Assembly (NCBI GenBank): GCA_046753585.1
Contig: JBHHTX010000001.1
Coordinates: 1-45,316, forward strand
DNA from: Mariprofundaceae bacterium
GTDB taxonomy: Bacteria > Pseudomonadota > Zetaproteobacteria > Mariprofundales > Mariprofundaceae
DNA: 45,316 nucleotides
Direction of reading: 5' to 3'
The notes under the pieces are model-generated. The model searched no databases. It was not told the DNA's origin and saw only the letters and a program-made list of their open reading frames with translations. Position numbers and translations under genes: made by a program. This document shows positions 1,571 to 41,913 of the stretch, piece after piece. How positions within the stretch are numbered: the stretch's first letter is position 1; the number at the start of each line of letters is the position of its first letter.

Positions 1571-2194
1571 CTATTGAAATATCTCCATAAGAATTTTTGA
1601 ACGCAGATCTTCCATGCCACGCTTGTCCAGGCTGGAGACAGGCAAGGGCGCAAGCATGCCACCAAGGGCCTGACGCATTTCCCTTAGTCGTTTGGTTCTG
1701 GCATTACCGGATAGCTTGTCCGACTTGGTGGCAACCGGTTGCCAGCGCAGGCCTTCAGCATTTAGCCATTCGATCAATTGCAGGTCGATCACCTTTGGCC
1801 CGTGCCTGATATCCATCAGAATCAATACCAGATCCGGGCCGATGTGACTTACCAGATAGGCCTCAATTAAACGTGACCATTGTTTCTGCTCTGACTTGGC
1901 GGCCCGCGCATAGCCGTATCCCGGTAAATCAACAATAAGAAGGCGATCGTCAACATTGAAAAGATTGAGCAAGCGTGTACGACCTGGCTGCTTGGATACT
2001 TTAACCAGATTTTTTCGACCAAAGAGCGCATTCAACAGAGAGGATTTACCTACATTTGAATGCCCCGCTATTGCAATGTGAGGCAGGGGAATGTCAGGAA
2101 AGTCGTCAACATTGGAGACGGATTGCACAAACTTCGTGTTTGGCCAGCGAATTTCTGTACACATGAGAGCAGCATGGCTGTTCATTTTTAGCAC
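1571..2194 (-). CDS. engB: Ribosome biogenesis GTP-binding protein EngB/YihA (start probably the ATG at 2185)
   Basis: G1 motif GHSNVGKSSLLNAL, followed by VSKQPGRTRLLNLF and DLPGYGYA. Length and motif order are typical of EngB. Confidence 0.9.
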   Translation of the reverse strand: MLKMNSHAALMCTEIRWPNTKFVQSVSNVDDFPDIPLPHIAIAGHSNVGKSSLLNALFGRKNLVKVSKQPGRTRLLNLFNVDDRLLIVDLPGYGYARAAKSEQKQWSRLIEAYLVSHIGPDLVLILMDIRHGPKVIDLQLIEWLNAEGLRWQPVATKSDKLSGNARTKRLREMRQALGGMLAPLPVSSLDKRGMEDLRSKILMEIFQ

Positions 2195-2257
2195 TGCAAG
2201 CTTTTGCAGATGTTAGTTGTGGCTGACGTGCGGGGGCGCCTCTGATAAAGTGCCTAA

Positions 2258-3283: not shown

Positions 3284-4283
3284 CGGCATTCCCATCACAT
3301 CGGTTCCCTTACCGTTGCTGTTACTCAATCAGAAAGGGTTTGTGCAGGCTGCTAATTTTCTGGCGCAGGAATGTTTGGAGATATCAAATCAGCGATTGAT
3401 TAACCAGCACCTTTCAGAAATTTTTTCTCCGGATTCAGAGGTGCGGCGTTTGTTGAAGCGGCTTGCAGTTACTGGCGAAGCGGTTTCCAATCATTGTCTC
3501 CACCTGGGCAATGCCAATATACCGTTTACACTGCATGCCAGGCCCTTTGCCGACGGAGTAGCCGTACTTCTGGTGGCCGAGGCCATTCGTCATGAAGTGA
3601 ATGCTTATTTGAAGCAGAAAGAGATGGCTGAAGCCGTCGCCCGCATTGCTCTGGAAATGGCACATGAGATCAAAAACCCGCTGGCCGCACTTCGGGGCGC
3701 TGCCCAGTGGCTCTCGGAGCGTCCTGAATCCGAGGATGCGAAGGAGGCTACCCGAATGATGATGGCGGAGGTCGATCGCATCAGTGAACGTGTGGATGAT
3801 TTTCTTCAACTCGGCACACCTTCCAGCGCAGGCATGCAACTGGTCAACATCCATTCTATGCTGGAGGAGGTTTGCAATCCCATTGCTGAAGTTCATCTAC
3901 AGCGTGTGTTTGATCCAGGTCTTCCGGAAATTATGGTGAACTCGTCGCGCCTCAGGCAAGCTATTGAAAACCTTTGGACAAATGCGCTGGAGGCAGGTTC
4001 CCGGAAAATCGAATTGCACACCCGGGCGCTATCAAGCACACGCCTTCCCGAGTACAACGGCCCTGTCATTGAAATTCTCATTGTCAGCGATGGTGCGGAT
4101 ATTCCTGAGCAATTGATCGACCATATATTTGAGCCCTTTGTAACTGGCAAGCAACGCGGTAGCGGCCTGGGCCTGGCTATCGTTCAACGTATCATGCAGG
4201 AGCATGACGGGCGAGTAATATTTGATACAAAACCTGGCCGCACAACATTTACGCTGCAGCTTCCGCTTCGGGGCATAAGGTAA
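3273..4283 (+). CDS. ntrB: Nitrogen-regulation sensor histidine kinase NtrB-like (PAS + HisKA + HATPase)
   Basis: H-box AHEIKNPLAALRGAAQ; N, G1 and G2 boxes (NLWTNALEA, FEPFVTGKQRGSGLGLAIV). I prefer the ATG at 3273 (GGGGGA upstream, 11-nt overlap with the dusB stop) over the ORF-track start at 3222. Confidence 0.85.
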   Translation: MQLDGIPITSVPLPLLLLNQKGFVQAANFLAQECLEISNQRLINQHLSEIFSPDSEVRRLLKRLAVTGEAVSNHCLHLGNANIPFTLHARPFADGVAVLLVAEAIRHEVNAYLKQKEMAEAVARIALEMAHEIKNPLAALRGAAQWLSERPESEDAKEATRMMMAEVDRISERVDDFLQLGTPSSAGMQLVNIHSMLEEVCNPIAEVHLQRVFDPGLPEIMVNSSRLRQAIENLWTNALEAGSRKIELHTRALSSTRLPEYNGPVIEILIVSDGADIPEQLIDHIFEPFVTGKQRGSGLGLAIVQRIMQEHDGRVIFDTKPGRTTFTLQLPLRGIR

Positions 4284-5689
4284 TGCGTGCACTGATCGTT
4301 GACGATGATCAGGGGATTCGCTGGATACTTGCCCGGGTGCTTCAGGAAGAGGGATATGAAGTCAGCCAGGCTGAAACTCTGGCCGAGGCAACACATAAAG
4401 CTGGTCAGCAAACTCCTGAGCTTATTTTTCTTGATGTTTATTTGCCGGATGGCAGCGGTTTGAAAGCCATGCAGGAAGGCATGTTTGCAGCCCCTGTAAT
4501 ACTGATGACGGCAGAAACAACCTTTGATAATGCTGCCCTGGCGTACAAAGCCGGTGCTATTGAATATCTGCCGAAACCATTTGATCTGGATGAGGTTCGA
4601 TCATTAGCCAGGCGGATCAAGCCCTCGGATGATACTGTTTCAACTGACGGGTCACACAGTGTCGATCATGACATCATTATTGGCAGAAGTGCTGTTATGC
4701 AGCGTCTGTTTCGCACACTTGGCAAGGTGGCGGCCTCTGACCTGACGGTGTTGATCACCGGGGAATCCGGAACAGGTAAGGAGCTGGTTGCCCACATACT
4801 GCATGATCAAAGTCGCCGGGCAAAAAAACCGTTTGTTGCCATCAACACGGCAGCGATCCCATCAGAATTACTGGAATCCGAACTGTTTGGACACGAGCGT
4901 GGTGCTTTTACCGGAGCTGATCGCTCTCGTCCCGGAAAATTTGAACAGGCTGATGGAGGCACGCTGTTTCTTGATGAAATCGGTGATATGCCTCCCTCCT
5001 TGCAGGTTAAGTTGCTCAGGGTTCTTGAGGAAGGACGTGTCCAGCGAGTTGGCTCTAAGGAAAGCAGGCCGGTCAATATCCGTTTACTGGCTGCAACGCA
5101 CCAGAATTTACTGCAGAAGATTGCCTCAGGAGATTTTCGGGAAGACCTTTACTATCGACTCAATGTGATCCCGGTAGCGATTCCGGCACTGAGAGATAGA
5201 AAAGATGATATACAGGAACTGGCTGAACATCTTCTCAAGGAAACTGCAGAAGAGCTGACCATGCAGCCCCCCATTATGCTTGACGAGGCTCTGGGCTTGT
5301 TAAGATCATACGACTGGCCGGGCAATGTGCGTGAGTTGAAGAATGTGATGCGCAGGTTGGCAGTGTTGACTCCCGGGGCCACAATCACGCTTTCCGATGT
5401 TGCCCTGGCCCTGGGCAACCACAGTCAGGGAGAAACGCAGGAAGAAACTCTGCCCGAGGCTGTAAGCCGTTGCCTTCAGCATTATTTTGACCACCTTGGA
5501 TATGCCAGGCCCTCTAATCTCCATCGCCACTTGCTTGAACAGGTCGAACCAGTTTTATTGTCACTGGTTTTAGAGCGCGTTAAAGGAAACCAGATCAAGG
5601 CGGCTGAAATGCTGGGGCTTAATCGCAATACGGTTCGCAAACTATTGAAGCAGTATGATATTGATCCGGCCGTTTATCGGAGATCCTAG
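4283..5689 (+). CDS. ntrC: Sigma-54-dependent response regulator NtrC (receiver + AAA+ + Fis-type HTH)
   Basis: Receiver MRALIVDDDQGIRWIL...DVYLPDGSG; AAA+ GESGTGKE, GAFTGA (GAFTGA loop) and FLDEIGDM; C-terminal HTH NQIKAAEMLGLNRNTVRKLLK. Confidence 0.92.
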   Translation: MRALIVDDDQGIRWILARVLQEEGYEVSQAETLAEATHKAGQQTPELIFLDVYLPDGSGLKAMQEGMFAAPVILMTAETTFDNAALAYKAGAIEYLPKPFDLDEVRSLARRIKPSDDTVSTDGSHSVDHDIIIGRSAVMQRLFRTLGKVAASDLTVLITGESGTGKELVAHILHDQSRRAKKPFVAINTAAIPSELLESELFGHERGAFTGADRSRPGKFEQADGGTLFLDEIGDMPPSLQVKLLRVLEEGRVQRVGSKESRPVNIRLLAATHQNLLQKIASGDFREDLYYRLNVIPVAIPALRDRKDDIQELAEHLLKETAEELTMQPPIMLDEALGLLRSYDWPGNVRELKNVMRRLAVLTPGATITLSDVALALGNHSQGETQEETLPEAVSRCLQHYFDHLGYARPSNLHRHLLEQVEPVLLSLVLERVKGNQIKAAEMLGLNRNTVRKLLKQYDIDPAVYRRS

Positions 5690-6333
5690 CCCGCATTATT
5701 GTTTGCAGCCCTCTCGGCCTGGGAGGGCCGGAGGTAGGCAGGTAATAGAAATCGGGGCAGGAGGGATAGTTCAACCGAGTTAGTTGACGCCAGAACAGCT
5801 TTGCCCAGGGCCTGAGACCTGCCTGTCTTCAGTTCCAAGCGATGCCACTCCGATAAGTCAACGGGCGGTTCACTCTGGCTTGCAAAGGAGCCTGGCTGAA
5901 TCTCGAGAACCTGACTCCAGGCAAGGCTTTGATCATCTTGCAGTGCTTCTCCCCCGGCAAAGTACCCGACATATGCATCACCGGCGCGGGCATCCTCAAA
6001 AACACAGATCGGCGCTTCGGAGTCAGTTTGAATTGCAGTGATTGCAAGTGAAGAGATGCCAAGCATAGGAAGTTTCAGACCAGTATTGATACCGGCCAGG
6101 GTTGATGCTGCGATACGCAAACCTGTGAATGAGCCTGGCCCAAGACCAAGCGCCAAAAGATCCAGATCGTTCCAGCTGAGTCTGGCTTCGGCCAATACCT
6201 TTTCCAACAGGGGGAGAATGGCTACGGAGTGCGGATTCTTGCCTTCGCTTTCGGCTTCAAACTGAGAGCCGTCGCTTCTCAAAACCGCACTGGCTGCATG
6301 CCCACAAGCGGCATCCAAAGCCAGAATATTCAC
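5686..6333 (-). CDS. tsaB: tRNA t6A37 biosynthesis protein TsaB (YeaZ)
   Basis: MNILALDAACGHAASAVL... and GPGSFTGLRIA motifs. About 215 aa. Confidence 0.85.
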   Translation of the reverse strand: MNILALDAACGHAASAVLRSDGSQFEAESEGKNPHSVAILPLLEKVLAEARLSWNDLDLLALGLGPGSFTGLRIAASTLAGINTGLKLPMLGISSLAITAIQTDSEAPICVFEDARAGDAYVGYFAGGEALQDDQSLAWSQVLEIQPGSFASQSEPPVDLSEWHRLELKTGRSQALGKAVLASTNSVELSLLPRFLLPAYLRPSQAERAANNNAG

Positions 6334-6355
6334 TGCTTAGAGGAGCTTGTTAACA

Positions 6356-7240
6356 CTAATCCAGAAAATCACGTAAAAATGTTTTGAATTCAGCGCCATA
6401 TAGCTGGTTTCGAACTCCCAGGGCTGCATTTGCCTTGAGGAATCCCAGGGGGTTGCCTGCATCGAAACGGTCACCTTCTATGATAACCCCGTAGACAGGT
6501 TGCTCTTTGGCAAGCCTGTGAATCGCATCGGTAAGCTGGATTTCACCTTGTATACCAGATGAAGTGTGTTTGAGGTAAGAAAAGATACTGGGAGAAAGAA
6601 TGTAACGGCCAATGATAGCCAGATCTGATGGAGTTTCGGCAGGATCCGGTTTCTCAATCATTCCGTTTATCCGCAGCAAACCATTTTTATCGCTGGCTTC
6701 AACCATTCCATAATGCTTACTGAGATGTTTTGGTATCCGGGTAAGCCCTATGACAGAAGCCCCGGTTTGTTTGTAAATCTCCCTTAATTGCTGCAGTGCC
6801 GGTTTCTCGGCAATAATCAGTTCATCAGCCAGAGAGACAGCAAAATATTCTTTGCCCACCCAGTGCCTGGCACAATAAATGGCATGACCCAGACCCAGCG
6901 CCTGTTTTTGCCGAATATAGGCCACATCGGCCATATGCGCGATACGTGAAACTTCTTTGTAGAGGGATTCCTTGCCAGCCAGCCGCAAATTGTTTTCCAA
7001 CTCTGCCGAGACATCAAAATGATCCTCAATGGCGCGCTTGCCCCGGCCGGTAACCATCACAACCTGATCCAGCCCGGTAGCCAGTGCTTCTTCCACTCCA
7101 TACTGAATCAGCGGCTTATCCACGATAGTCAGCATTTCCTTTGGGCTGGCTTTGGTCGCCGGAAGGAAGCGGGTACCCATGCCTGCGGTCGGAAAGATTA
7201 CTTTGCGCAGGTGATCAGACATGATCGCAGCAGCACTCAT
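6356..7240 (-). CDS. galU: UTP--glucose-1-phosphate uridylyltransferase
   Basis: KVIFPTAGMGTRFLPATKASPKEMLTIVDKPLIQY, VMVTGRGKRAIEDHFD and LGLGHAI are hallmark GalU motifs. Confidence 0.93.
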   Translation of the reverse strand: MSAAAIMSDHLRKVIFPTAGMGTRFLPATKASPKEMLTIVDKPLIQYGVEEALATGLDQVVMVTGRGKRAIEDHFDVSAELENNLRLAGKESLYKEVSRIAHMADVAYIRQKQALGLGHAIYCARHWVGKEYFAVSLADELIIAEKPALQQLREIYKQTGASVIGLTRIPKHLSKHYGMVEASDKNGLLRINGMIEKPDPAETPSDLAIIGRYILSPSIFSYLKHTSSGIQGEIQLTDAIHRLAKEQPVYGVIIEGDRFDAGNPLGFLKANAALGVRNQLYGAEFKTFLRDFLD

Positions 7241-7252
7241 GAACAGTTCAGC

Positions 7253-8476
7253 TCAGGACAGACGTCCGTAGGAGTGCAGGCCGGACAGATACATATTAAC
7301 CCCTACAAAGCAGAACAGGGTAATGACAAAGCCGGCAACAACCCACCAGGCAAGTGATGTTCCACGCCAGCCATGGGTAATCCGCACATGCAGATAGGCC
7401 CCATAAACCAGCCAGACAATAAGGGCCCATGTTTCCTTGGGATCCCAGGACCAGTAACCTCCCCATGCCTCAGCAGCCCAGGCAGCTCCCAGGATGGTGG
7501 CAAGTGTAAAAGCAGGAAAGCCAACAGCCACGGCCTTGTAGGTGAGATCGTCCAGTTGATCCAGAGTTGGAAAAGATGATAACAATTTGGCTGCCCTGCC
7601 CTTTTTCTCCAGGTGGGTTCTTAGCAGATACATAATCCCGGTACCGCAGGCGACGGCAAAGGCGCCATAACCGACAAAATTCAGGGGGACATGTATCTTC
7701 ATCCAGTAGGATTGAAGAGCCGGTACCAGGGGTTTTATATCCGCCTGTCCGACAGAACCCAGCCAAATACCGAAGAACACACCGGCAGCGACCAGCGGCA
7801 TAATAAATGCTCCCAGAGTGCGCACCCTGTATCGATGTTCCAGTGACAGGTAAATCAGCGTGGTAATACAGAAAAGCAGAATAAAGACTTCATAAAGATT
7901 GGAGACAGGGGCATGACCGATATCAGGGCTGATCAAATATGATTCATACCAACGCAGCAAAAGAGCTGAGCCGCCCGCATAAACCCCAAGCCAGGCACTC
8001 ATGGTTCCCAATTTACCAATAAAGGACTCGGGCGCGAACAGGTTCATGAGATAAAGCACAGCTGAAAATATAAATATGGTATTCATGGCCATGACAATAC
8101 GACCGGAGATAAGACCGGTCTGATCCTCGTAGCTGATGAGGGAACGATGGGGCTCGAGCAATGCAAAACAACTAGCGAGCAAAAGCATGAGGAGTGCACC
8201 GTCAAGCCATGGCACCAGGGTAGAGGAAAATTTTGATTCAACTGCATCCGGTTTGAGGAAACAGATTGCCAGGGAGCCAATCAGGCCCGCAGTGGCACCC
8301 GACCCACCCCAAAGCATGAGAAGGCGCGACGGGTTGGTTTCATAACCATCCAGGCCGAAGAAATACAGTGCAGAAAGGCCGACGATTGCACCAAGATAGG
8401 TATAGAATCGGGCAAATCCTGTTTTACCCGCGTTCATACTATAAAAATTCCAGTTAGCGGTCGCAACTGCTGTCAT
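7253..8476 (-). CDS. ccsA: Cytochrome c biogenesis protein CcsA (system II heme lyase/heme channel)
   Basis: Polytopic membrane protein with the W-rich WWD motif WGGYWSWDPKETWALIVW. It lies adjacent to and overlaps resB. Confidence 0.9.
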   Translation of the reverse strand: MTAVATANWNFYSMNAGKTGFARFYTYLGAIVGLSALYFFGLDGYETNPSRLLMLWGGSGATAGLIGSLAICFLKPDAVESKFSSTLVPWLDGALLMLLLASCFALLEPHRSLISYEDQTGLISGRIVMAMNTIFIFSAVLYLMNLFAPESFIGKLGTMSAWLGVYAGGSALLLRWYESYLISPDIGHAPVSNLYEVFILLFCITTLIYLSLEHRYRVRTLGAFIMPLVAAGVFFGIWLGSVGQADIKPLVPALQSYWMKIHVPLNFVGYGAFAVACGTGIMYLLRTHLEKKGRAAKLLSSFPTLDQLDDLTYKAVAVGFPAFTLATILGAAWAAEAWGGYWSWDPKETWALIVWLVYGAYLHVRITHGWRGTSLAWWVVAGFVITLFCFVGVNMYLSGLHSYGRLS

Positions 8477-10170
8477 GATTTTCCTCCTGCTGACTCTATT
8501 GAACGCAGATTGTCATCCAGCTTACTTAAAATATCATGAAATTCTTTTTCAAACTCCATACGGTTACGATTACTCATGCCCGCGAAACGAACCTGGACAC
8601 CTTTGCCTTTGGCCTCCAGTACAGCCCAAAGTTTGCGGTGTGGAAAATAAAACATGATGCACAGACCAATCACCAGGATTCCGCTGCCAACCCAGACAAC
8701 GTTAATGCCAGGATCGTTGGTGAGCTGCAAGCCGGTATAATAGACTTGTTCATAGTCATCGAGAATGGGAACAAATGGCCATGGAAAGGATTTCAGACTG
8801 TTGACGCTTTGAATCAACCTGAGGCCCATGGCTTCCAGATTATCCGGTTTTTGCTCTCCGAAAACCTCAAACAGGGCGGAGCGGAAGGCTTCCAGTGAGG
8901 CCTCTTCCTTGGATACCTTCGGATTTTTTAAATTACGGCTAAATGCATTGAAAGTTTTCCATTCGTTTACATTGGTGAAATCCATACCCATATAGAAAGG
9001 CTGATAGTCAGCAGCATTGCCGCTAAACGAAATCATGATGAGATGCCCCAGGTTCTCTCCATCAATATCAAACGGGTTCATGAAACTCTTGACCTTTACC
9101 GTTTTAAGTTCCGGCCCACGCAGGATGTATTCGATGGCAGGGCCCAGGTCAACAAGATTACGGGGTTCATCCGGGCCGGCAACATTTTCAACGTTGAATG
9201 GCTTGAAGTCAGTAAACTCCAGGCTTAACCCGGTTTCCTCGTCGGTAAACTTTTCATATACCGTACCCTCCACCGCATCAATCTGGCCAGAGCCATCCAG
9301 GCGAAAAAGTTTGAGCTTAAGCTTTGAGCCGCCATCGCCAAAGGAAGCCTGATAGACACTAACGCCTTTATAATATAAAGGTTCGTTGACAATGATATCT
9401 GAAGTCAGAATCTCTTTTCCATCTTCAAGAATGGTCAGGTTGCTCTTGAACTCCTTGGGTTGGCCGGAAGGATAAAAGTCGATATTGAAATCATTGCAGC
9501 GGATAGAAAACGGCATGTTGAGGGATGCGAGTTTTGTACCTTTGAGGAAATTGATTTGCTGCATGGTTCCGCCTTCAGGAACCGCCATATTGCCTCGAAA
9601 ACCGAATTGTACACTGAGCAGTCCGCCAGTGAGGATAATCAGGATAGCTGCATGCACCAAAATATAACCTGACTTGTTATAGCGGCCCTTATCCGCCCGC
9701 AGATAAACACGATCATCACACTTTTCCGAACGCAAGCGCCAATTTTTCAGAAGGGATTCTATTTTTCCTTGAATGGGCTCGATTCCGGATGCATTGATAT
9801 TCCACTGTTTCAGGTGATGGAAACGCTGCAGGGACTTGTCGGCAATGATCACCCGGTTACGGCGCATTTCCTTGAGCATGCGCGGCGTGTTGCGCCATAA
9901 ACATACGATCAGGGAAACCATCAGAAAGCCGAGCAGGCATATAAACCACCACGAATGGTACATATCAAACAGGCCGAGAAGTCGAAAGACTCCATACCAG
10001 AGTGGCCCAAACTGGCTGAAGTAGTCGGCCTGCTCCTGATTCTGGATGAGGACAGTGCCGATAACCGATGCGAGGGATAAAATGACAAGCAGCACGATTG
10101 CCAGGGACATGGATCCCAGTCTGTCGATATAAGGCTTAAACTCTTCTGAAATAGAACTCATGGCAGGCAT
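8473..10170 (-). CDS. resB: Cytochrome c biogenesis protein ResB/Ccs1 (system II)
   Basis: N-terminal TM pair with LAIVLLVILSLASVIGTVLIQNQ, a large periplasmic domain and a C-terminal TM. There is a 4-nt overlap with ccsA. Confidence 0.88.
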   Translation of the reverse strand: MPAMSSISEEFKPYIDRLGSMSLAIVLLVILSLASVIGTVLIQNQEQADYFSQFGPLWYGVFRLLGLFDMYHSWWFICLLGFLMVSLIVCLWRNTPRMLKEMRRNRVIIADKSLQRFHHLKQWNINASGIEPIQGKIESLLKNWRLRSEKCDDRVYLRADKGRYNKSGYILVHAAILIILTGGLLSVQFGFRGNMAVPEGGTMQQINFLKGTKLASLNMPFSIRCNDFNIDFYPSGQPKEFKSNLTILEDGKEILTSDIIVNEPLYYKGVSVYQASFGDGGSKLKLKLFRLDGSGQIDAVEGTVYEKFTDEETGLSLEFTDFKPFNVENVAGPDEPRNLVDLGPAIEYILRGPELKTVKVKSFMNPFDIDGENLGHLIMISFSGNAADYQPFYMGMDFTNVNEWKTFNAFSRNLKNPKVSKEEASLEAFRSALFEVFGEQKPDNLEAMGLRLIQSVNSLKSFPWPFVPILDDYEQVYYTGLQLTNDPGINVVWVGSGILVIGLCIMFYFPHRKLWAVLEAKGKGVQVRFAGMSNRNRMEFEKEFHDILSKLDDNLRSIESAGGKS

Positions 10171-16958: not shown

Positions 16959-17543
16959 TTAATTAAAAACCGGAAAGTGCCCGCTTGATGCCATAAAGAA
17001 CAGCATTGGAATCGACAACAACGTATTGAGACGGGATGCCATCAACGCTTTCTTACCAGCTGCAGCCTTTTCGTCAGCAGTAGCTTCTTCGATGCCGATA
17101 ATTTTTTTCTGGGCGGGCCAGATGATGAACCAGACATTGAACCACATGATAATGCCGAAGGCGGCACCAATACGGATATCCCAGCCGGCTGCAGAGCCCA
17201 TATTCATATACAGTATTAGGCCAAAGATAAGAGTGAACATAGCTCCCCAGCGGAACCACCACAAGGCACGGCGAACAATGCTGCACTCTTTGAACAAGTC
17301 AGCCTTGGTATCAACAGACAAGCCACCCATTGATGGAACCTGTACAAAATTAAAGTAGTAAAGGAGACCTATCCAGGTGATACCGGCCAGGAAGTGTCCC
17401 CAGCGGGCAAGACCATTCGGATCCAGGCCCTCATAGCTGCCGCCGGAAGCAATCGTTGTCTTGATGCCGATTGCGATCAGAACAAGGGTAAGAATAAAGC
17501 CGGCACCAATGGTCCAGCGATGATCCTGAAATATTTTCATCAT
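16959..17543 (-). CDS. Integral membrane protein of unknown function. It may be related to the membrane (N-terminal) domain of PuuD-type urate hydroxylases; that family call is low confidence.
   Basis: Four to five hydrophobic helices; conserved-looking HFLAGITWIGLLYYFNFVQVP. I place the start at ATGATG 17543, preceded by AGGAG at 7 nt. The ORF-track extension to 17672 has no support. Confidence 0.6.
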   Translation of the reverse strand: MMKIFQDHRWTIGAGFILTLVLIAIGIKTTIASGGSYEGLDPNGLARWGHFLAGITWIGLLYYFNFVQVPSMGGLSVDTKADLFKECSIVRRALWWFRWGAMFTLIFGLILYMNMGSAAGWDIRIGAAFGIIMWFNVWFIIWPAQKKIIGIEEATADEKAAAGKKALMASRLNTLLSIPMLFFMASSGHFPVFN

Positions 17544-17721
17544 GATAAACTCCTGATGGATTTTTTTGTCGGCGCAAACTATACCCGGATTCGGGATTAT
17601 CAAGTACCTTGAGTTTTTATGGCCTTTACCCATGCTATATCTGACAGACGTTATTTTTACACTTGCATCCAAGTGTGTTTTAACCTACCACTAGGGTTTA
17701 GGAAACGCTTGGGGTTAATGT

Positions 17722-21087: not shown

Positions 21088-21447
21088 GAGGAGTGGTTCG
21101 GATGGTCGCGACACGTTTCTTACCCGTCGAGGAAAGTCCGGGCTGCACAGGGCAAGGTGCCGGATAATGTCCGGTGGGTGTGAACCCAAGGAAAGTGCCA
21201 CAGAAAATATACCGCCGGGCTTTTCCCGGTAAGGGTGAAAAGGTGCGGTAAGAGCGCCCCGCTCCGAACGGTAACGGTTGGAGGCATGGTAAACCCCACC
21301 TGCTGCAAGGCCAAATAAGGAAACGCTGAGCGTTGCCCGCGCAAGTTTCCGGGTAGGCTGCATGAGCTGTCGGGCAACCGACAGCCTAGATGAATGACCA
21401 TCCCTCCTTTAGCGGAGGACAAAACCCGGCTTACAGAACCACTCCTC
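21088..21447 (+). ncRNA. rnpB: RNase P RNA, bacterial type A
   Basis: Universally conserved GAGGAAAGUCCGGGCU, GGUAAGGGUGAAA.GGUGCGGUAAGAGCGC, AGAUGAAUGA and ACAAAACCCGGCUUA blocks. P1 pairs GAGGAGUGGUUC (5') with GAACCACUCCUC (3'); P2 pairs GGAUGGUC with GACCAUCC. A U6 run follows the 3' end. Confidence 0.95.
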
Positions 21448-21477
21448 TTTTTTCTGTGCCGATGAGAGAACAGGAGA

Positions 21478-34777: not shown

Positions 34778-35380
34778 CTAATGAAGGTAACGCGTCGCTT
34801 CCAAATGTTCGGGGTATCTGACGAGCACACGTTCATACCTGGCTGCAGCCAGATCTTTTTTCCCCTGCCAGGCATAAGCACGTGCCAGGTAAATCAATGT
34901 GGTCGCATCGGATGGATAGTAGCTTGAAAACAGGGAGGCGTGTTTTTCCAGCGTCTGCCATTGTTTCAAGCCTTCTTCACATACCATTAAACGGGTATTG
35001 GCCGTATAATTTAATGGCGACTTAGCCAGTACCTGCTTTAGATAACGCATGGCTTCCTTCCATCGTTTCTGTGCCATCAAAGGCAGAGCGATTCCGAGCC
35101 TGGCATCAAATGATCGTGTGTTCTGCTCCAAAGCCTGCTGATATGCCTTTATAGAATCGTTGAAATTACCCTGAAGATAGTTCAGCCAGCCATACCGTAA
35201 GCGGGCAAATTCATGATCTTCCCCCTTACCCAATAAAGGCACCAGTACGGCAGCTGCCTTTTCGTATTCACCCTTCGCTTCCAACGTATAGGATGAGCTC
35301 CATGGGCTACTGTTTTCCTCAGCCGAGGCAATATGCACACAACATAGTAGAGCAATCAGAATCAACATTGATCGATACAT
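34778..35380 (-). CDS. Periplasmic TPR-repeat protein (last gene of the candidate operon)
   Basis: Signal peptide MYRSMLILIALLCCVHIASA, followed by about 4-5 TPR-like helical repeats (...AIKAYQQALEQN..., ...EAMRYLKQVLAKSP..., ...LAAARYERVLVRYPEH...). AAGGAGA lies 8 nt upstream of the ATG. Confidence 0.75.
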   Translation of the reverse strand: MYRSMLILIALLCCVHIASAEENSSPWSSSYTLEAKGEYEKAAAVLVPLLGKGEDHEFARLRYGWLNYLQGNFNDSIKAYQQALEQNTRSFDARLGIALPLMAQKRWKEAMRYLKQVLAKSPLNYTANTRLMVCEEGLKQWQTLEKHASLFSSYYPSDATTLIYLARAYAWQGKKDLAAARYERVLVRYPEHLEATRYLH

Positions 35381-35395
35381 TATTTATTCTCCTTC

Positions 35396-36295
35396 TTACC
35401 ATTGTTTGGAAATATTCAGATAAAGAAACCGGTTGTCGTAGCTGTCACCGATATTGTTATTCAGGTAATTTTCATTGCCGCCTACCATCAGTAAGCGAAA
35501 AGATTCTGCCAATCGCCACTGCAAACCGAGGGAAAGAGAACCTCGCTGGATATCGGCAAGATTGTAAACAACGGCGGCATCACCATCGACAGCATAAATT
35601 CTTTCACCTGCAAGACCACTGACCTGCAACTTTTCCAGCCGGTGCCAGGCACCCGGGTCAAACCAGTGCATCCATTTAGCCTCAACAGCAGTAGTATTGT
35701 TTTTGCTCTGGGCCCGCAAGCTATTGCTAGGATCGATAAAATATCCTCTGAGCTGAATCCAGTCAGATGAGTCATTGAAGGCGAAACCGAACGTGGGGGT
35801 GAACTGGTGTACTTCCAGATTATTCAGATACTTTGAATAGGCATAGCCGAAATCGACATACAATGTCTTGGCGTAATTCATAAACGAGAACTGTGGCGCG
35901 ATTACTTTGACATGGTCCGTATCACCGGTAATATCGTTGTTGTATATGCTGTGCCCGTCAATTCGCAACGTCAGCGGGCCGGGAATTGCATCAAAATACA
36001 AATTGTAATGCAGGCTTCCGTATAGTGCCTGCTGGTTGATATCGTTCATGGTATTAAACTTCAGCCTGGTGTAGTTACCTCCCAGAGAAAATCCACCCTG
36101 TTCAAGATAATCAGCACTTAAAATCAGGCCACCTCCGGCAATGGAGCTGCGATTTGCTGAACCACTGTAATTGCCATAAATTCCCTGAACATCAGTTTTG
36201 ACAGACCAGTCTCCCTCAGCAGCCATACATGCATACTGCATATTTAACATGAACCCTGTAATCACAAGGCCAAAGGTCAGACATCGTTTTTTCAT
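35396..36295 (-). CDS. Outer-membrane beta-barrel protein, uncharacterised family
   Basis: I take the start as ATG 36295 (GGGAG 6 nt upstream), giving MKKRCLTFGLVITGFMLNMQYACMAAEG. After the signal peptide there are alternating-hydrophobicity strands rich in Y/G/N, and a C-terminal aromatic residue (...YLNISKQW). The ORF-track start at 36442 overlaps the upstream gene. Confidence 0.7.
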   Translation of the reverse strand: MKKRCLTFGLVITGFMLNMQYACMAAEGDWSVKTDVQGIYGNYSGSANRSSIAGGGLILSADYLEQGGFSLGGNYTRLKFNTMNDINQQALYGSLHYNLYFDAIPGPLTLRIDGHSIYNNDITGDTDHVKVIAPQFSFMNYAKTLYVDFGYAYSKYLNNLEVHQFTPTFGFAFNDSSDWIQLRGYFIDPSNSLRAQSKNNTTAVEAKWMHWFDPGAWHRLEKLQVSGLAGERIYAVDGDAAVVYNLADIQRGSLSLGLQWRLAESFRLLMVGGNENYLNNNIGDSYDNRFLYLNISKQW

Positions 36296-36317
36296 AAAGC
36301 GCTCCCGTTTGCCTGTA

Positions 36318-38483
36318 TCATGTTTTGATTTTCCATGCAGGAATACCTGCATCCGCCTTTTGGCCAAGTTCCAGCAGAGAAGCTTCAAATGTTGTGTTCC
36401 CGCTAAGCAGCGTAATATTTTTGCAACCAAGTCGGGGCTCAATACATACCGTTGTTGTGGCCTTCAGGCCGGAGCCAAACGGTAGTTTAAGATGGTGTTC
36501 ACCGCGTTGCTGCCAGTTCTCTCCATTCCATTGACGCAGATAATGGCTGTCGATACCGCTGCCCATCGGCAATAACAACCAGTTTATCAGGCGTTGCGTC
36601 CTGGTTGTTGGAATCAGATGCCTTGAAGGTTGATCTCTCCAGGACAGTTCACCTTCCGTAAATGGCGTTAACCCCAAGGCAAGCAACCATGTATCCAGCA
36701 AGGCATCAACCGGCCCTTCGCGGTCATAAAATGCAAGCAAATTATCCTGACAGGTAAATGCTGCACTGGCTCCGGAATCAGTTACCAGCCTTAACTGGCC
36801 TGAATGGTTCAGCGAGATATGCATGTCTCGCTCGCCTGTTTCTCCATTTTCTGTGACCCGGTAACAGAACTCCCTGCCTACGCTTAATTTCAGGCTTTCA
36901 AGTAAAGCTGCTTCAACCTTCGGCGTTTTCACCCGCTCGCCAGCCAATGGACGGACAAATAGCTTGAACTGAGCCCGGGAGTTTTCTTCGGGCTGGTGCA
37001 AAACGGTGCTGAGATGAAAAGGGTGCGTGGGGCTACCCAACGTTTCTCCCCATTGAACATGCAAGTGCAAATGAGGCTGTGGAGAACGTCCTGAACTGCC
37101 GCATTCAGCCAGTTTTTGGCCCGGGTTAACGTACATCCCTGTTTCTACGCTGAGACTTCCCTGCTTCAAATGCGCCAAAAGGGCAAATAATCCATTATTC
37201 ATACGAATCAGCACATGATTGCCCCAGTTGTTATCCATATCCACCTGGCCGGGTAAATTATCCGGAAGACTGTCCAGGGTTTTCACCACGACCCCTGTAA
37301 CAGGAGAAAGGACAGGCAGGCCAAAACAATAATAGTCATTAAGACCGGCACCATCGGTGCGATAACTCTCTGCGTTTTCAACAATATAAAAATCAAGTGC
37401 GTGCTGCCAGGGTGGCTGGTGCGTGTGTGGCCCGTCAAAACCTTGATAAATTTCCCATTGGCCATAAAAGGGGGCCAGCACAGGCAGACTACCGAATTCA
37501 CCATGCCGAGCCAGAGCCAGACGGGCTCGTTCCGAACTTTTTTCAGGCAATGCCGGATCTTCCAGAATAACTTGCAGAGATTTTGAAGCCGGTCGTTTGG
37601 TTAATGCCAGCAGAATAGTTGCGGTGGTAATCAGAAAAGGCAGCGCCATCACCGGCAGGCCATATACCAGCATAAATGTTTCCGTGGCGGAGGTTACCAG
37701 CGCGGCAACTACAGCGCCGACCATGGCCAGTAAAAAACTCTGCAGGCCCGGAACTGTGAATATGCCACCCAGAGCCATGGCAACAAGAATAAAATTAAAA
37801 CCGTTCCATGCAACAAGGTCAGGGTGGGGACTTCCGGTCAGAAACGCATAGGTTGCATAGCCGCAGAGAAAACCTGCAATGGCCAACAGCATAAGATAAC
37901 GGGATGTAATGGCCAGTCCGATCAACATCAGCAGGCCGGCAATCGGATGTGGAGAAAAAAATGCGGAGCCCAGCGCGGTCAGGAATTGATCAACAGATGG
38001 TGACACAAGTTCCTCGTAGGGAGCCAGCGGTAGCAGGTAACGACTGAGCGTGCCGTAACTGTGAGCGGCCAGAGTTACGGTCAGGGCAACCACTACAAAT
38101 GGCAGACTCAGTGCTGGCAAGCGATCCAGACGCCACAATACATCAGCCATCGCTACAGTCGCAAATACGGCCAGCAAAGCTCCCAGCACAATCAATACAC
38201 CGAGATAGAAATCAAGTTGGTAATAGGCTCCCAGAGACAATCCGACCAGGAGACTGTTGTAGACATGTAAGCCACTCTCAAGGTTTCTGAATTTCAGCAG
38301 CCTGGCCGTGAACATGCCGACCGCAGCCGCCAGGAGCCCGGAAAGTCCTATATTGGGAAAGTAGAACGTGGCAATGAGAAACAGGCTGCCAACCAGCGGT
38401 CTTTCAGCAAATAGAATCGATCCATAAGCCCTGACCAGACCGGCTGCTGTTTTCTCGAAAGTTTTCAGTGGTTTATCAGACAA
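36318..38483 (-). CDS. Fusion protein: urea-transporter-family (UT) channel domain, M23 zinc metallopeptidase domain, and an uncharacterised C-terminal domain of about 240 aa
   Basis: The UT two-fold internal repeat is visible: YGSILFAERPLVGSLFLI / LGSAFFSPHPIAGLLMLI; GLHVYNSLLVGLSLG / WNGFNFILVAMALGG; LPALSLPFVV / LPVMALPFLI (aa ~15-297). The M23 motifs are HALDF (HxxxD) and PHLHLHV (HxH), with GNHVLIRM between them (aa ~335-480). It has a TTG start, 2 nt after the decarboxylase stop. Confidence 0.85.
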   Translation of the reverse strand: MSDKPLKTFEKTAAGLVRAYGSILFAERPLVGSLFLIATFYFPNIGLSGLLAAAVGMFTARLLKFRNLESGLHVYNSLLVGLSLGAYYQLDFYLGVLIVLGALLAVFATVAMADVLWRLDRLPALSLPFVVVALTVTLAAHSYGTLSRYLLPLAPYEELVSPSVDQFLTALGSAFFSPHPIAGLLMLIGLAITSRYLMLLAIAGFLCGYATYAFLTGSPHPDLVAWNGFNFILVAMALGGIFTVPGLQSFLLAMVGAVVAALVTSATETFMLVYGLPVMALPFLITTATILLALTKRPASKSLQVILEDPALPEKSSERARLALARHGEFGSLPVLAPFYGQWEIYQGFDGPHTHQPPWQHALDFYIVENAESYRTDGAGLNDYYCFGLPVLSPVTGVVVKTLDSLPDNLPGQVDMDNNWGNHVLIRMNNGLFALLAHLKQGSLSVETGMYVNPGQKLAECGSSGRSPQPHLHLHVQWGETLGSPTHPFHLSTVLHQPEENSRAQFKLFVRPLAGERVKTPKVEAALLESLKLSVGREFCYRVTENGETGERDMHISLNHSGQLRLVTDSGASAAFTCQDNLLAFYDREGPVDALLDTWLLALGLTPFTEGELSWRDQPSRHLIPTTRTQRLINWLLLPMGSGIDSHYLRQWNGENWQQRGEHHLKLPFGSGLKATTTVCIEPRLGCKNITLLSGNTTFEASLLELGQKADAGIPAWKIKT

Positions 38484-38485
38484 AA

Positions 38486-39880
38486 TTATTTTTGCTTTTG
38501 GGTCTCTACTGAGCAGAGGTGTGCCGGAATCCTCTCCTGTGCCGTTACCGCTTCCAGATCCTCAGCGGCACGTACTACCGAGACCTGTTGATCCGTATGC
38601 ACCATTACGACATTCGGGCGATATTCGATAAACTGCATCCACTGGGTGTTGTTGTAAGCGCCAACCGGACTGAAAATAAGCGCATCACCAATGCTAAGCG
38701 GGGGCATCATCACCGACGAGCGCATTACATCGATATTCATACAAAGCGGGCCGTACAACACGGTATCTTCCGGCACACCTTCCAGTTCCCGTGTTGGCAT
38801 AACCTGATGATTGTACCAGAAGCTGGTGAACAGGACATTGACGCCGCCATCGAGAACCACCGAGCGACGGCCATCCGGCATGCGCTTGTTGGCAACCACG
38901 GACGTGACAAGAATCTCCGTGTCATCCACCACTGCCCGGCCACTTTCCAGAATTAACCGTGGTCGACCCTTGCCCTGCAAGTCGCGTTCTCTGGTGGCGT
39001 CATTCAATGCGGAACAAATGGCGTCAGCATACTGATCCATGCTGGGGACAACCTGCTCCGGCGGTAGATACGTTCCCTGCAGGGAGTTCATTGATGCAAA
39101 ACCACCGCCGATATCGATGCTTTCAATGCTGCAACCGGTTCTTGATTCCACCGCATCCATAAAAGAACACATGATACGAACCTGGGCCGCATAGGCGCGG
39201 GGATCAAGCACAAAAGTGCCCAGGTGGCTGTGTAATCCAGTCAGGTTCAGATGCTTGCTTTCACCCAGAATACGGGCTGCATCCATCGCCTGACCGGATT
39301 CGATATTAAAACCGAAACGGCTCCAGGGTTCAGTGAATCCGGTATCAAAATTCAAACGCATGGTCAGATCAATCTGCTTATCAGCCCCGGCAGCCACATC
39401 TTCAAGCAAATACAGCTCATCCAGATTATCCAGATGAATACGACCACCCTCCGCTACTACGCGTTCAAGAATAGGCCGCTCCTTGTGGGGGCCATTGAAC
39501 AATATTTTCTCAGCCGGCACACCCAGCGATCGGGCTTTTTCATATTCAAAGGCAGAAACCACCTCTGCCCAGGCCCCTTCCTGATGCAGTGTATTGCAAA
39601 CTGCTGCCAGATAATTGGTTTTGTACGACCAGCTGTAGGTAATATTGGAATACCGTGTTTCAAAGGCACGTAACAATTTACGCACATTATCGCGCAAGCG
39701 TTTCTCCGACAGAATAAACAGCGGTGATCCGAACTCTTCCAGCAGAGGCGCAATGGTTGCGCCTTCAAAGCTGTCCTGAAAATGACTACTGCCGGCACTG
39801 CCAAACTTGTTTAACGATCCGATCCGGTGCGGCGTCAAGGTGGGTTTACTCCATGTTTTTTTACCTTCTTTCTGACTCAT
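38486..39880 (-). CDS. Type III PLP-dependent decarboxylase (Orn/DAP/Arg decarboxylase family 2, LysA-like); substrate unknown
   Basis: FGSPLFILSEKRLRDN, PLP-lysine motif YSWKTNY, DIGGGF, and C-terminal beta-barrel part with GPLCMNIDV and GAY. There is a 4-nt ATGA overlap with the upstream ATP-grasp gene. Confidence 0.85.
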   Translation of the reverse strand: MSQKEGKKTWSKPTLTPHRIGSLNKFGSAGSSHFQDSFEGATIAPLLEEFGSPLFILSEKRLRDNVRKLLRAFETRYSNITYSWSYKTNYLAAVCNTLHQEGAWAEVVSAFEYEKARSLGVPAEKILFNGPHKERPILERVVAEGGRIHLDNLDELYLLEDVAAGADKQIDLTMRLNFDTGFTEPWSRFGFNIESGQAMDAARILGESKHLNLTGLHSHLGTFVLDPRAYAAQVRIMCSFMDAVESRTGCSIESIDIGGGFASMNSLQGTYLPPEQVVPSMDQYADAICSALNDATRERDLQGKGRPRLILESGRAVVDDTEILVTSVVANKRMPDGRRSVVLDGGVNVLFTSFWYNHQVMPTRELEGVPEDTVLYGPLCMNIDVMRSSVMMPPLSIGDALIFSPVGAYNNTQWMQFIEYRPNVVMVHTDQQVSVVRAAEDLEAVTAQERIPAHLCSVETQKQK

Positions 39881-40971
39881 GCTGCCTCTCCGTCCATTTT
39901 ATTCGTGTTTGCGGCATAGTTACCGTGTATTGCCATGGATTCAAATGTACTCAGATCAATGACAGTTTCCTGTGCATAGCGAATCATCATCATGCCTGTT
40001 TTCGGCTCCTCAAGTTTCGGCTTCCGGCCCATTATCAGTTCAACCAGAACGGCCGGCAGATTGCTGCCAGCTTTAGCAGCCAGGTAAATCCAGGCCGGAA
40101 AACGCGGGTTAATTTCAATCAGCAGATATTGTCCATCCGATTCTTTAAGCATTTCCACTTCCAGCGGGCCCGCCCATTGTAGTTCCTGCACCAGTTTCAG
40201 AGCATCTTCCTGCAACTGAGCATCCTCGATGGTGACACATGACCAGGCCTTGCCCTTATCGGTTACAGCCTGTTTTCGCATCATCACCGAACCCAGAAGT
40301 TTGCCCTTACCGTCACCGACAGCAGTCAGGTTCACTTCATGGCCTTTGACGTAACGCTGAACGAGTACAGGATACCCCCAGCTTGCTGCAACCCGCTTGA
40401 ATGCTTCGGCACCTTCATCGGCATTGTGCACAATGCTGGCGTCATAAAAGACCCCCTTCACAACCATCGGGTATTTCCAGCCATCTTCGTGGCAGCTATA
40501 GAAGAAACGGGCGCTGGTAATGTTTTTTGTTTCCGGATAACGGATGCCGGCACTCTTCGCCAGATCACCCAGCCTATCCTTGTTGCGATCACGTAACTGA
40601 TTGACATCGGGTATTAACATCCGAATGCCCAGGTGTTCAAACTCGTGGAGCAAACGGCTAAAGCTGAGAAGCTCTGCATCCAGGCAGGGGATGAGGACAT
40701 CAATGGATTCCTGCTCCCGAATAAAATGCATGCGCTCCATCAGTTGTTGCTCTCCGGCCGAGGGATACGGTAGCAGGTATGCTGTATCACATATTTCATG
40801 CAGGTAAAGTCCTGGATCAAGCACATCATACCCCAGTCCGACAATACGAATCTGCTCTCCATGCGCTAATCTCAGGCAGCGGGCAACTGCCAGACCGGGA
40901 CCCGGATTATCCGGCTTGGCATTCATGCCGGTGATAGCAATGGTTAATTTGTTCTGGCCGGATGTACTCAT
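39877..40971 (-). CDS. ATP-grasp superfamily carboxylate-amine ligase (PylC/CPS-like)
   Basis: N-terminal pre-ATP-grasp Rossmann region (LTIAITGMNA...); ATP-binding YPMVVKG, LVQRYVKGHE, and Mg/ATP motif LLIEINPRFPAW. Both ends have 4-nt ATGA overlaps. Confidence 0.85.
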   Translation of the reverse strand: MSTSGQNKLTIAITGMNAKPDNPGPGLAVARCLRLAHGEQIRIVGLGYDVLDPGLYLHEICDTAYLLPYPSAGEQQLMERMHFIREQESIDVLIPCLDAELLSFSRLLHEFEHLGIRMLIPDVNQLRDRNKDRLGDLAKSAGIRYPETKNITSARFFYSCHEDGWKYPMVVKGVFYDASIVHNADEGAEAFKRVAASWGYPVLVQRYVKGHEVNLTAVGDGKGKLLGSVMMRKQAVTDKGKAWSCVTIEDAQLQEDALKLVQELQWAGPLEVEMLKESDGQYLLIEINPRFPAWIYLAAKAGSNLPAVLVELIMGRKPKLEEPKTGMMMIRYAQETVIDLSTFESMAIHGNYAANTNKMDGEAA

Positions 40972-41786
40972 GTCAGGAATTTGCGCAACTGGCCGGAAAA
41001 ATCTGTGATATCACGCTGGGCATTGGCTTTACTGACTTCGAAATCACGGACAATAGCAACGAGAAGTGCCTCGGCATCGTTGCTGTGTTGTAGAAAATGC
41101 ATTATATACATACCCACTTCGTTGGCGGTAAAGCTTCGTCCATTAACCGGATCAAAGACAAAGCCACTGTCGTTCAAAGCTAGCCTTTGCATCACGTCCA
41201 TGGACGGGAAGATGTTATTGCCGGATTCATTTTTTTCCCATGGTAATTGATTCATCAATCGCTCCTTTTGCCTGTTCCGGTCAGGGTTTTCGGGATTCCA
41301 GGCACGGTAGATTGACCGCATCAAATGATCATTTAAAACGTCCGATGCAATCCCTATGGGTGTTGAACTCAACAGCTCTATTCTTGTCTGTATCACACGC
41401 TGAAACTGAGACCGACAGATTTCCAGTTGTTGGCGCAGATACGGTGTATCCATTGGCTGACAACACAGGAAATTCAACAAAGACTTATCTTGCAGTAAGT
41501 GCTGCAACAGATAAATCAGGCCATCACGACCTGCCGGCATTGCTTCCAGCAACAAACGAAGCTTGTCACCACGTGTTTCCACCCAGTTGGCAAGCATGGC
41601 CTCCTTGGATGAGAAATGCCGAAACAGTACACCGTCGGATATATCGGATTCTCTGGAGACTTGCTGGGTTGTCAGAAAGGCCAACTGATCCCTGGCCGCA
41701 ATACAATCGATGGCAAGTAGCACTTGCTGACAGCGCTTTTTTGTGGTCTCAGTTTTGAGCTGATGTTTACCCATATGCCGCATCAA
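40968..41786 (-). CDS. TetR-family transcriptional regulator with a C-terminal PqqD-like (RiPP-recognition-element-type) domain
   Basis: TetR HTH TTQQVSRESDISDGVLFRHFSSKEAML (aa ~38-66). The C-terminal ~77 aa, LALNDSGFVFDPVNGRSFTANEVGMYIMHFLQHSNDAEALLVAIVRDFEVSKANAQRDITDFSGQLRKF, follow the PqqD-family pattern (small beta-sheet, then a 3-helix bundle, ending D-[VI]-x-x-F-x-x-x-L). Confidence 0.75.
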   Translation of the reverse strand: MMRHMGKHQLKTETTKKRCQQVLLAIDCIAARDQLAFLTTQQVSRESDISDGVLFRHFSSKEAMLANWVETRGDKLRLLLEAMPAGRDGLIYLLQHLLQDKSLLNFLCCQPMDTPYLRQQLEICRSQFQRVIQTRIELLSSTPIGIASDVLNDHLMRSIYRAWNPENPDRNRQKERLMNQLPWEKNESGNNIFPSMDVMQRLALNDSGFVFDPVNGRSFTANEVGMYIMHFLQHSNDAEALLVAIVRDFEVSKANAQRDITDFSGQLRKFLT

Positions 41787-41913
41787 AAATGAGAGTGTTT
41801 ACTTTCACAAGCTTTTTTTGCGTGGCTCTGTAAATAATAATTCAGCCTCCTTCTATTTTTAAATAAGATCGAAACAGGATTGTCACTTAACTGCCCGGAA
41901 TTTTGCAAGAAGT

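Follow-up and report, generated by a model that had tools for sequence, protein, structure and literature searches.

We identified an unusual membrane protein gene in a 45,316-nucleotide stretch of DNA (hereafter the window) from a Mariprofundaceae bacterium of the Zetaproteobacteria (assembly GCA_046753585.1, contig JBHHTX010000001.1, positions 1 to 45,316). It encodes a channel of the urea transporter (UT) family, joined to an M23 metallopeptidase and to a C-terminal domain, here termed domain X. The gene, UT-M23-X, is the fourth of a cassette of six, which encode in order a PqqD-like protein, an ATP-grasp ligase, an FslC-like pyridoxal phosphate (PLP) dependent decarboxylase, the fusion itself, a 14-stranded porin and a periplasmic tetratricopeptide repeat (TPR) protein. 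We consider it about 85% probable that these six genes form a dedicated envelope pathway with no relation to urea nutrition, and that UT-M23-X is its part in the inner membrane.

Inspection of the open reading frames (ORFs) of the window identified the fusion gene as an uninterrupted frame of 721 codons, on the minus strand only, at positions 36318-38483, with a TTG start 2 nt past the stop codon of the third cassette gene. On this strand, the UT channel domain (residues 16-294) occupies positions 37602-38438, and is followed by a linker rich in lysine and arginine (residues 295-334, PALPE..ERARLA..R, with residues conserved among homologues; 37482-37601), the M23 domain (residues ~335-491; 37011-37481) and domain X (residues 492-721; 36321-37010). 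The same architecture, in proteins of 700-790 residues, recurs in hundreds of protein clusters and, in a scan of one genome per species, in relatives carried by 342 species, indicating that it is neither a chance fusion nor a misassembly. The three parts recognised in the first-pass annotation (UT, M23 and a C-terminal domain) are real, the last of them spanning about 230 residues, and we add to them the strand of the gene.

We obtained over 700 matches to the fusion from a set of 5.8 billion protein clusters. Among the best 120 of these, nearly all were 685-770 residues long (three shorter ones being partial), contained both UT and M23, and were 48-100% identical. Among the hosts are Zetaproteobacteria (the closest), Methylococcales, Halieaceae, Thiotrichales, Magnetococcales, Rhodospirillales, Nitrospirae, Desulfobulbaceae and Burkholderiales, and the cultured strains that bear the cassette include Congregibacter variabilis IMCC43200, Ghiorsea bivora (WP_051937943.1) and Mariprofundus sp. 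EBB-1. Neither the fusion nor the cassette was found in plasmid records, in which only distant stand-alone M23 relatives surfaced. The combination of UT and M23 is already catalogued, as a 2026 survey of UT architectures listed it in bacteria as previously unknown, giving neither its function nor its gene context (PMC12998343). We found no paper in the searched literature that combines UT, M23, ATP-grasp and PqqD. As far as this literature shows, no description exists of the predicted cytoplasmic location of the M23 domain, of the altered filter of the pore, of the domain specific to the fusion or, most notably, of the invariant cassette of six genes.

We investigated the conservation of the cassette. 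Four initial look-ups in distant lineages returned the same six genes in the same order, as did, with the six window proteins as tblastn queries, essentially all of the 85 loci that had enough flanking sequence. These syntenic loci are spread over several bacterial phyla, through all of the host groups named above. Clustering of all ORFs of at least 30 residues against each other, across 86 loci, did not reveal a seventh conserved gene, with only the six genes and their shadow ORFs recurring. The start and stop codons of the cassette genes overlap or abut in the window. The six genes together take up only about 7 kb, and the cassette probably controls its own expression.

The N-terminal domain matches the Pfam UT profile (PF03253) over residues 16-294, corresponding to profile positions 4-291 of 292 (E = 1e-53; 182.9 bits against a cut-off of 25), indicating that both channel halves are present. 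A profile built from 23 homologues additionally aligns over ~300 positions with the solved chains of UT-A, UT-B and dvUT, in agreement with the earlier view that the domain is complete with both of its internal repeats. We counted conservation in 118 full-length homologues of UT-M23-X, to which all such counts below refer. The residues of the UT signature are essentially invariant (N76, S77, L79, G81, L82, W117, P123, L125, P128, F129, F176, F229, N230, P277, P282 and F283), indicating that the domain is more than a membrane anchor; the strong purifying selection on these pore motifs bears out the proposal, made from the window alone, that the channel is intact.

The filter of the pore differs from that of urea channels. 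In bovine UT-B, the threonines of the selectivity filter are Thr172 and Thr334, placed in LPxxTxPF motifs, and the substitution T334V abolishes the flux of urea, water and NH3 (PMC12171576). In the fusion family this pair is replaced by Ser126 (117 of the 118 homologues) and Ala280 (111 of 118, with threonine in six others), the alanine standing at the more critical of the two positions. The tryptophan that follows the second threonine in UT-B (W335) is a leucine or an isoleucine. The filter is therefore remodelled, and is not a standard urea filter. Otherwise, the fusion shares with the UT/SLC14 channels (dvUT, bovine and human UT-B, UT-A) the pore motifs YNxxLVGL/FNxxL and LPxx(T)xPF in both repeats, but differs from them in a predicted cytoplasmic extension of 420 residues, and in its linkage to biosynthetic-type genes and a porin rather than to urease genes.

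Further evidence against urea as the permeant came from profile scores and gene context. TIGR03441, the NCBIfam equivalog model for the yut urea transporter, scored the protein at 111.6 bits, under its cut-off of 274.6. We could not find genes for urease or urea carboxylase among the ORFs scanned over the 45-kb window, nor among the conserved neighbours in the 85 loci. The protein therefore failed as a urea transporter on its filter threonines, on its equivalog score and on its linkage to urea metabolism. Databases name it "urea transporter" or "urea transporter/MepM/NlpD", and these names, with the high Pfam UT score, would favour an ordinary urea transporter that carries an incidental cell-wall hydrolase domain. 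Against the low TIGR03441 score, the alanine in place of the filter threonine, the lack of urease or urea carboxylase nearby, the predicted cytoplasmic position of the M23 domain, and the constant linkage of the gene to five unrelated ones, this database reading is very improbable. The gene context fits better with a channel repurposed for a small amide-like product, as the first-pass annotation had supposed, than with urea transport. Hundreds of proteins that are labelled as urea transporters are probably not urea transporters, in hosts that include iron oxidisers, methanotrophs, sulfur oxidisers, magnetotactic bacteria and marine Halieaceae, and inferences on the nitrogen cycle from metagenomes may be misled by them.

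We next consider the position of the remaining domains relative to the membrane. No transmembrane segment is apparent in the hydropathy profile past residue 297, and neither a signal peptide nor a transmembrane segment lies between the UT and M23 domains. Lysine and arginine residues number four in the N-terminus and seven in the linker that follows the pore, and are absent from the long loops at residues 150-185 and 205-232. The linker lacks a hydrophobic segment, and P310, P313, E314, R321, L322, R326, S332 and P334 are invariant within it. Solved and surveyed UTs have ten transmembrane helices and an intracellular N-terminus (PMC12171576, PMC12998343). From these three lines of evidence, the M23 domain and domain X are predicted to lie, probably, on the cytoplasmic side of the inner membrane. 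Cleavage of the peptidoglycan wall is therefore unlikely, and this placement argues against the cutting of peptidoglycan cross-bridges, an activity that the first-pass annotation listed for M23 enzymes.

The M23 domain itself is apparently an active zinc peptidase, judging from the conservation of its catalytic residues. The Pfam profile Peptidase_M23 (PF01551) matches residues 388-479 (E = 1.4e-12; 48.1 bits against a cut-off of 28.7), and the profile of 23 homologues aligned with chains of LytM, zoocin A, ShyA, DipM and lysostaphin, in each case in the C-terminal half of the M23 fold. Five residues, H355, D364, H438, H471 and H473, are invariant, whereas H361, the histidine of the "HALDF" motif, is a tyrosine or a phenylalanine in 17 of the 118 homologues. 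In distant M23 relatives, H355 is likewise kept as histidine and the position of H361 is a tyrosine. The first zinc ligand is thus probably H355 and not H361, and a complete site is likely, with H355, D364 and H473 as ligands and H438 and H471 as catalytic residues. The full zinc site described in the first-pass annotation (HALDF ... HLHLH) accordingly looks intact, although its first ligand probably lies six residues before the one then named. The fall-back outcome of a degenerate, LytM-type regulatory domain was not seen, given the invariance of the catalytic residues.

The spacing of this site is unusual, with H-x8-D followed by an insertion of ~20 residues after the aspartate motif, in place of the canonical HxxxD. 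Compared with characterised M23 enzymes (LytM, lysostaphin, zoocin A and ShyA/MepM, and those of LasA type), the domain retains the aspartate, the histidine of the "AHL" motif and the "PHLHxH" motif, and differs in this spacing and insertion, in its fusion to a channel, and in being predicted to be cytoplasmic rather than extracytoplasmic. Two cysteines of the domain are also conserved, C386 in 116 and C461 in all 118 of the homologues, for which a structural, redox or metal-binding role is possible.

Stand-alone, membrane-anchored M23 proteins from Thermus and from haloarchaeal plasmids are 37-44% identical to the fusion over residues ~338-477. The closest of these are ~320-360 residues long with hydrophobic N-terminal segments, and are found on a Thermus thermophilus plasmid (locus L086, positions 5635-6594) and on a Haloplanus plasmid (locus L087, positions 5593-6669). 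Since the haloarchaeal relatives come from hosts that have no murein, the substrate of this M23 subfamily may be something other than peptidoglycan.

For domain X (residues ~492-721), we found no match in Pfam, NCBIfam or the sequences of the Protein Data Bank (PDB). An AlphaFold2 model (pLDDT 94.6, pTM 0.90) confidently folds the domain as a beta half-barrel with three short helices. The best Foldseek matches to the PDB were LolA, LprG and RseB, at E-values of ~1e-3, TM-scores of 0.31-0.41 and root-mean-square deviations of 10-12 Å. The domain is modelled as a half-barrel with a few helices, for which the unclosed barrels of the LolA, LolB, LprG and RseB kind are the best matches, and differs from them in its predicted cytoplasmic location, in the lack of any sequence similarity, and in TM-scores of only 0.3-0.4. 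Homology to LolA, LprG or RseB is unsupported by the modelled fold, and the domain is without a convincing solved relative. A phmmer search of 1.84 billion representatives identified domain X in 134 proteins, most of them ~650-790 residues long and with the domain in the same position; about 50 shorter matches are probably fragments, although some of them may be stand-alone copies. The domain therefore seems almost restricted to the UT-M23-X fusion. The first-pass description of the C-terminal region as an unrecognised family is upheld, both by the lack of sequence-family matches and by the weakness of the structural ones.

These features allow a second explanation to be weighed, in which the protein is a regulated channel: the pore would conduct urea, ammonia or a similar solute, and the M23 domain with domain X would form a cytoplasmic plug or sensor, gated by a ligand that the cassette enzymes make, with any peptidase chemistry being secondary. 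Regulatory modules such as ankyrin repeats and EF-hands are found C-terminal to the pore in other UT fusions (PMC12998343). The conserved linker between the pore and the M23 domain, and the weak resemblance of the half-barrel to the ligand-binding folds of LolA and LprG, are in keeping with such an arrangement. Regulatory LytM-type domains usually lose their catalytic and zinc residues, as have EnvC and NlpD, whereas all five of these are invariant here. The filter residue most critical for urea is moreover changed, and genes of urea metabolism were not found nearby. We consider a regulated channel to be unlikely. The converse idea of the first-pass annotation, that the permeant gates the peptidase, is still conceivable.

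We investigated the other five members of the cassette, all of which lie on the minus strand. Gene 1 (40968-41786) encodes a protein of 272 residues, with a TetR-like part over the N-terminal ~190 residues (Pfam TetR_N at residues 38-66) and a PqqD-like part of RRE type (Pfam PqqD at residues 210-269). Its true start is probably an ATG at 41783 or at 41775. The PqqD part (PF05402, E = 7e-7, above the cut-off) was identified in every locus with enough flank, and is conserved in 71 loci; its C-termini do not form conserved acidic tails. The TetR part was found in Zetaproteobacteria, Magnetococcales, Desulfobulbaceae and some Gammaproteobacteria. Gene 2 (39877-40971), the start of which overlaps the stop of gene 1, encodes the ATP-grasp ligase of 364 residues, with matches to the Pfam families ATPgrasp_Ter, ATP-grasp_3 and Dala_Dala_lig_C. 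The ligase is 48-90% identical across loci, and its NCBIfam "CPSase-like" matches are sub-threshold only.

Gene 3 (38486-39880) encodes the PLP decarboxylase, a member of the ornithine/diaminopimelate/arginine family of 464 residues (Pfam Orn_Arg_deC_N and Orn_DAP_Arg_deC), and is the most conserved member of the cassette, at 58-95% identity across loci. Its nearest solved relative is the N-citrylornithine decarboxylase FslC (7KH2, E = 2e-50), whose "GPSCMQHD" motif is resembled by "GPLCMNID" in the cassette enzyme; the "CES" motif of LysA is absent. The substrate of FslC is an amino acid acylated on its side chain. An FslC-like C-M motif in place of C-E-S points to a substrate amino acid whose side chain is already amide-linked. 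Ahead of the core that is homologous to LysA and FslC, the enzyme carries a strongly conserved N-terminal extension of ~38 residues (39767-39880, minus strand; W-x-K-P-T-[LI]-x-P-H-R-x-G-x-LNKFG), which could be a candidate for the segment bound by the PqqD-like protein.

Gene 5 encodes an outer-membrane beta-barrel of 299 residues, with a signal peptide and a C-terminal tryptophan (35396-36295). The barrel gave no match in Pfam or in PDB sequences, and was identified by its fold only: an AlphaFold2 model (pLDDT 93) has 14 strands, and is closest by Foldseek to the monomeric porins CymA and OmpG (TM-scores 0.53-0.67, E ~1e-8). It is syntenic in 74 loci. A mechanical ORF of 348 residues at 35396-36442 (minus strand), with a TTG start, would share 125 nt with the end of the fusion gene; the homologues and the signal peptide place the true start at the ATG at 36295. 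Finally, gene 6 (34778-35380) encodes a secreted TPR protein of 200 residues with a signal peptide, which matches multiple Pfam TPR families, has signal-peptide-like N-termini in all homologues, and is syntenic in 67 loci.

The composition of the cassette bears on two further explanations. The first is a role in uptake and assimilation, in which a small amide-type compound would enter by way of the porin, the TPR protein and the UT pore, be hydrolysed by the M23 domain with domain X on reaching the cytoplasm, and have its pieces converted by the ligase and decarboxylase. UT channels are passive, and bacteria normally use them for uptake. The nearest folds to the cassette porin, OmpG and CymA, are uptake pores, the peptidase is predicted to lie at the cytoplasmic exit of the channel, and control by a TetR-type repressor or by an adjoining two-component system (described below) is seen in many substrate-induced catabolic operons. 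ATP-grasp ligases and decarboxylases of the FslC, BtrK and LysA types are, in contrast, typical of biosynthesis; the PqqD-like chaperone has no known catabolic role; and neither a periplasmic binding protein nor downstream catabolic enzymes are conserved at the loci. Uptake is, on this evidence, an improbable function for the cassette.

The second concerns the handling of peptidoglycan peptides in the cytoplasm. The enzymes would act on stem peptides that contain meso-diaminopimelate (meso-DAP), with the Ddl-like ATP-grasp enzyme as ligase, the LysA-like enzyme decarboxylating the free D-centre of peptide-bound DAP, the M23 domain cleaving, and the pore and porin handling a by-product. The nearest large family of each enzyme does belong to cell-wall metabolism (Dala_Dala_lig_C, LysA and the M23 DD-endopeptidases), and SPOR-domain proteins adjoin the cassette in Methylococcales. 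The decarboxylase is nevertheless nearer to FslC than to LysA, and lacks the C-E-S motif; the closest relatives of the M23 domain include those of murein-less haloarchaea; the dedicated porin and TPR protein would be left unexplained; and Mur, Mpl and Ldc genes are absent from the cassette. We view such a role as quite unlikely.

We return to the envelope pathway, of which UT-M23-X would be the inner-membrane component. The six parts, comprising cytoplasmic enzymes with a PqqD-like protein, a pore joined to a peptidase, an outer-membrane pore and a periplasmic TPR protein, always co-occur, and on this basis we tentatively propose a specific scheme, in which the enzymes build an amide-linked conjugate, the M23 domain frees a small product at the mouth of the pore, and the product leaves through the two pores in succession. 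In the cytoplasm, the ATP-grasp ligase would couple an amino acid, through its side chain, to a carboxylate partner that the PqqD-like chaperone may hold, and the FslC-like decarboxylase would strip the alpha-carboxylate from the tethered amino acid. The cytoplasmic M23 domain, with the half-barrel of domain X as a binding platform, would then hydrolyse an amide bond, so that a small, polar amide or amine is set free where the UT-type pore opens to the cytoplasm. The remodelled filter (threonine to alanine, tryptophan to leucine) would pass this product rather than urea, and the product would cross the periplasm and exit by the dedicated porin, with the TPR protein as a periplasmic partner.

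Stated more broadly, the cassette may be an unrecognised envelope-spanning small-molecule pathway, in which the UT pore serves a non-urea permeant that the fused peptidase releases from a carrier-bound or peptide-bound intermediate; we offer this as a possibility, and with some doubt. If true, the fusion would be a passive-channel counterpart of peptidase-containing exporters, and the first bacterial UT protein with a physiological role that does not involve urea. It would further represent a new coupling of product release to membrane passage without ATP and a new class of permeant for the UT fold, and would suggest that organisms of redox interfaces have a secreted or periplasmic metabolite yet to be discovered.

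Several points weigh against this interpretation. No ORF of at least 30 residues that could encode a precursor peptide is conserved in or beside the cassette among 86 loci, although ones under 30 residues or at a distance are possible, and with no precursor peptide the scheme does not account for the PqqD-like protein. As narrow channels that are passive and bidirectional, UT pores would not favour a charged amine, and they provide no energy coupling for export. The cytoplasmic position of the M23 domain is a prediction that combines hydropathy with the positive-inside rule and with homology to solved UTs; the geometry of the zinc site (H355 or H361) is inferred from conservation only; and the proposed model leaves the conserved cysteines C386 and C461 unexplained.

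We compared the cassette with known systems in which similar parts are combined. In the C39 peptidase-ABC transporters and the ClbP-type prodrug peptidases, a processing peptidase is joined to membrane passage. A coupling of cleavage to translocation is possible in both these and the fusion, the analogy being one of logic only. There is no relationship in sequence or in fold; the fusion has a passive UT pore and a zinc M23 peptidase, where these systems have an ATP-driven pump and a cysteine or serine peptidase; and a cargo peptide was not found in the cassette loci. As in the carboxylate-siderophore pathways of vibrioferrin (PvsA/PvsE) and rhizoferrin (FslC), an ATP-grasp enzyme adjoins a decarboxylase, which in the cassette is closest to FslC and shares its C-M motif. 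Unlike those pathways, the cassette has no IucA/IucC-type synthetase, TonB-dependent receptor or major facilitator superfamily (MFS) exporter, and a UT pore would be too narrow for a siderophore. The cassette also recalls pathways templated on a carrier or a peptide (LysW/LysX/LysK, and PQQ and mycofactocin with a PqqD-type RRE and a peptidase), in combining a PqqD-like domain with an ATP-dependent ligase, with a tailoring enzyme, and with a metallopeptidase that might free the product. In the cassette, however, we found no gene for a carrier protein or precursor, no conserved acidic tails on the PqqD-like proteins, and no radical-SAM enzyme.

Other assignments were considered and dropped. A role in Slam or type XI secretion was raised by a sub-threshold TPR_Slam match, and was set aside as the barrel is nearest to OmpG and CymA and has no DUF560 match. 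A role in stalk formation or as a siderophore system of iron oxidisers was likewise rejected, as the cassette also occurs in unrelated lifestyles, and siderophore synthetase and receptor genes are absent. PADLOC gave no anti-phage defence match for any of the six cassette proteins.

We additionally identified a putative operator at the head of the cassette. A palindrome, GTGAAAGTAAACACTCTCA, lies just upstream of the TetR-PqqD gene at 41790-41808 (minus strand), and occurs once in the window, where none is expected by chance. Each of 24 related loci has a single copy of a relaxed form, GTGAAAGT-N4-ACTYTCA, in every case just 5' of the first cassette gene (for example at L003 4687-4706, L030 448-467 and L082 3495-3514). 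In nearly all of them, a TetR-like N-terminal extension can be detected on the PqqD protein, locus L015 being the exception. The palindrome is likely to be an autoregulatory operator of the TetR-PqqD fusion repressor, to judge from this pattern. A reading frame of 13-24 codons 5' of gene 1, considered as a precursor peptide, turned out to be this conserved DNA palindrome. Upstream of the operator is a weak sigma-70-like promoter match (TTTAAA-18-TATTAT; 41834-41863, minus strand), which is a consensus match only, of a kind no more frequent than in shuffled sequence. When the window and six loci were scanned with Rfam, the RNAs identified were limited to RNase P RNA and transfer RNAs (tRNAs), none of them near the cassette; no riboswitch was found.

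At roughly 7-10 loci, drawn from diverse lineages, the genes beside the cassette encode a response regulator of OmpR type and a sensor kinase with HAMP and HisKA domains (L066, positions 7572-9733; also L015, L040, L045, L049, L076, L080 and others), which suggests that an adjoining two-component system provides an alternative mode of regulation. In Methylococcales, the neighbours of the cassette include two tandem ORFs of 98 residues, a stand-alone C39 peptidase, and a SPOR-domain protein of ~600 residues with a barrel part that resembles Phenol_MetA_deg and DUF3187 (L001, positions 1178-5050; L005, positions 1203-4713; also L032, L035, L036, L046, L050 and L069). This set may form a bacteriocin-like unit of its own, or extend the system in this lineage only.

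The remainder of the window consists of housekeeping genes (purD, purH, pnp, recN, nadK, accD, folC, trpA and those of cytochrome c biogenesis), and contains no tRNA genes. A full-length RNase P RNA of bacterial class A was identified on the plus strand at 21090-21449 (Rfam RF00010, 330 bits), indicating that the mechanical ORFs called there on both strands are probably not genes. Finally, the C-terminal third of an ORF of 237 residues at 16959-17672 (minus strand) matches the Urate_ox_N membrane domain (PF06181, E = 4e-14), with the profile being partly covered.

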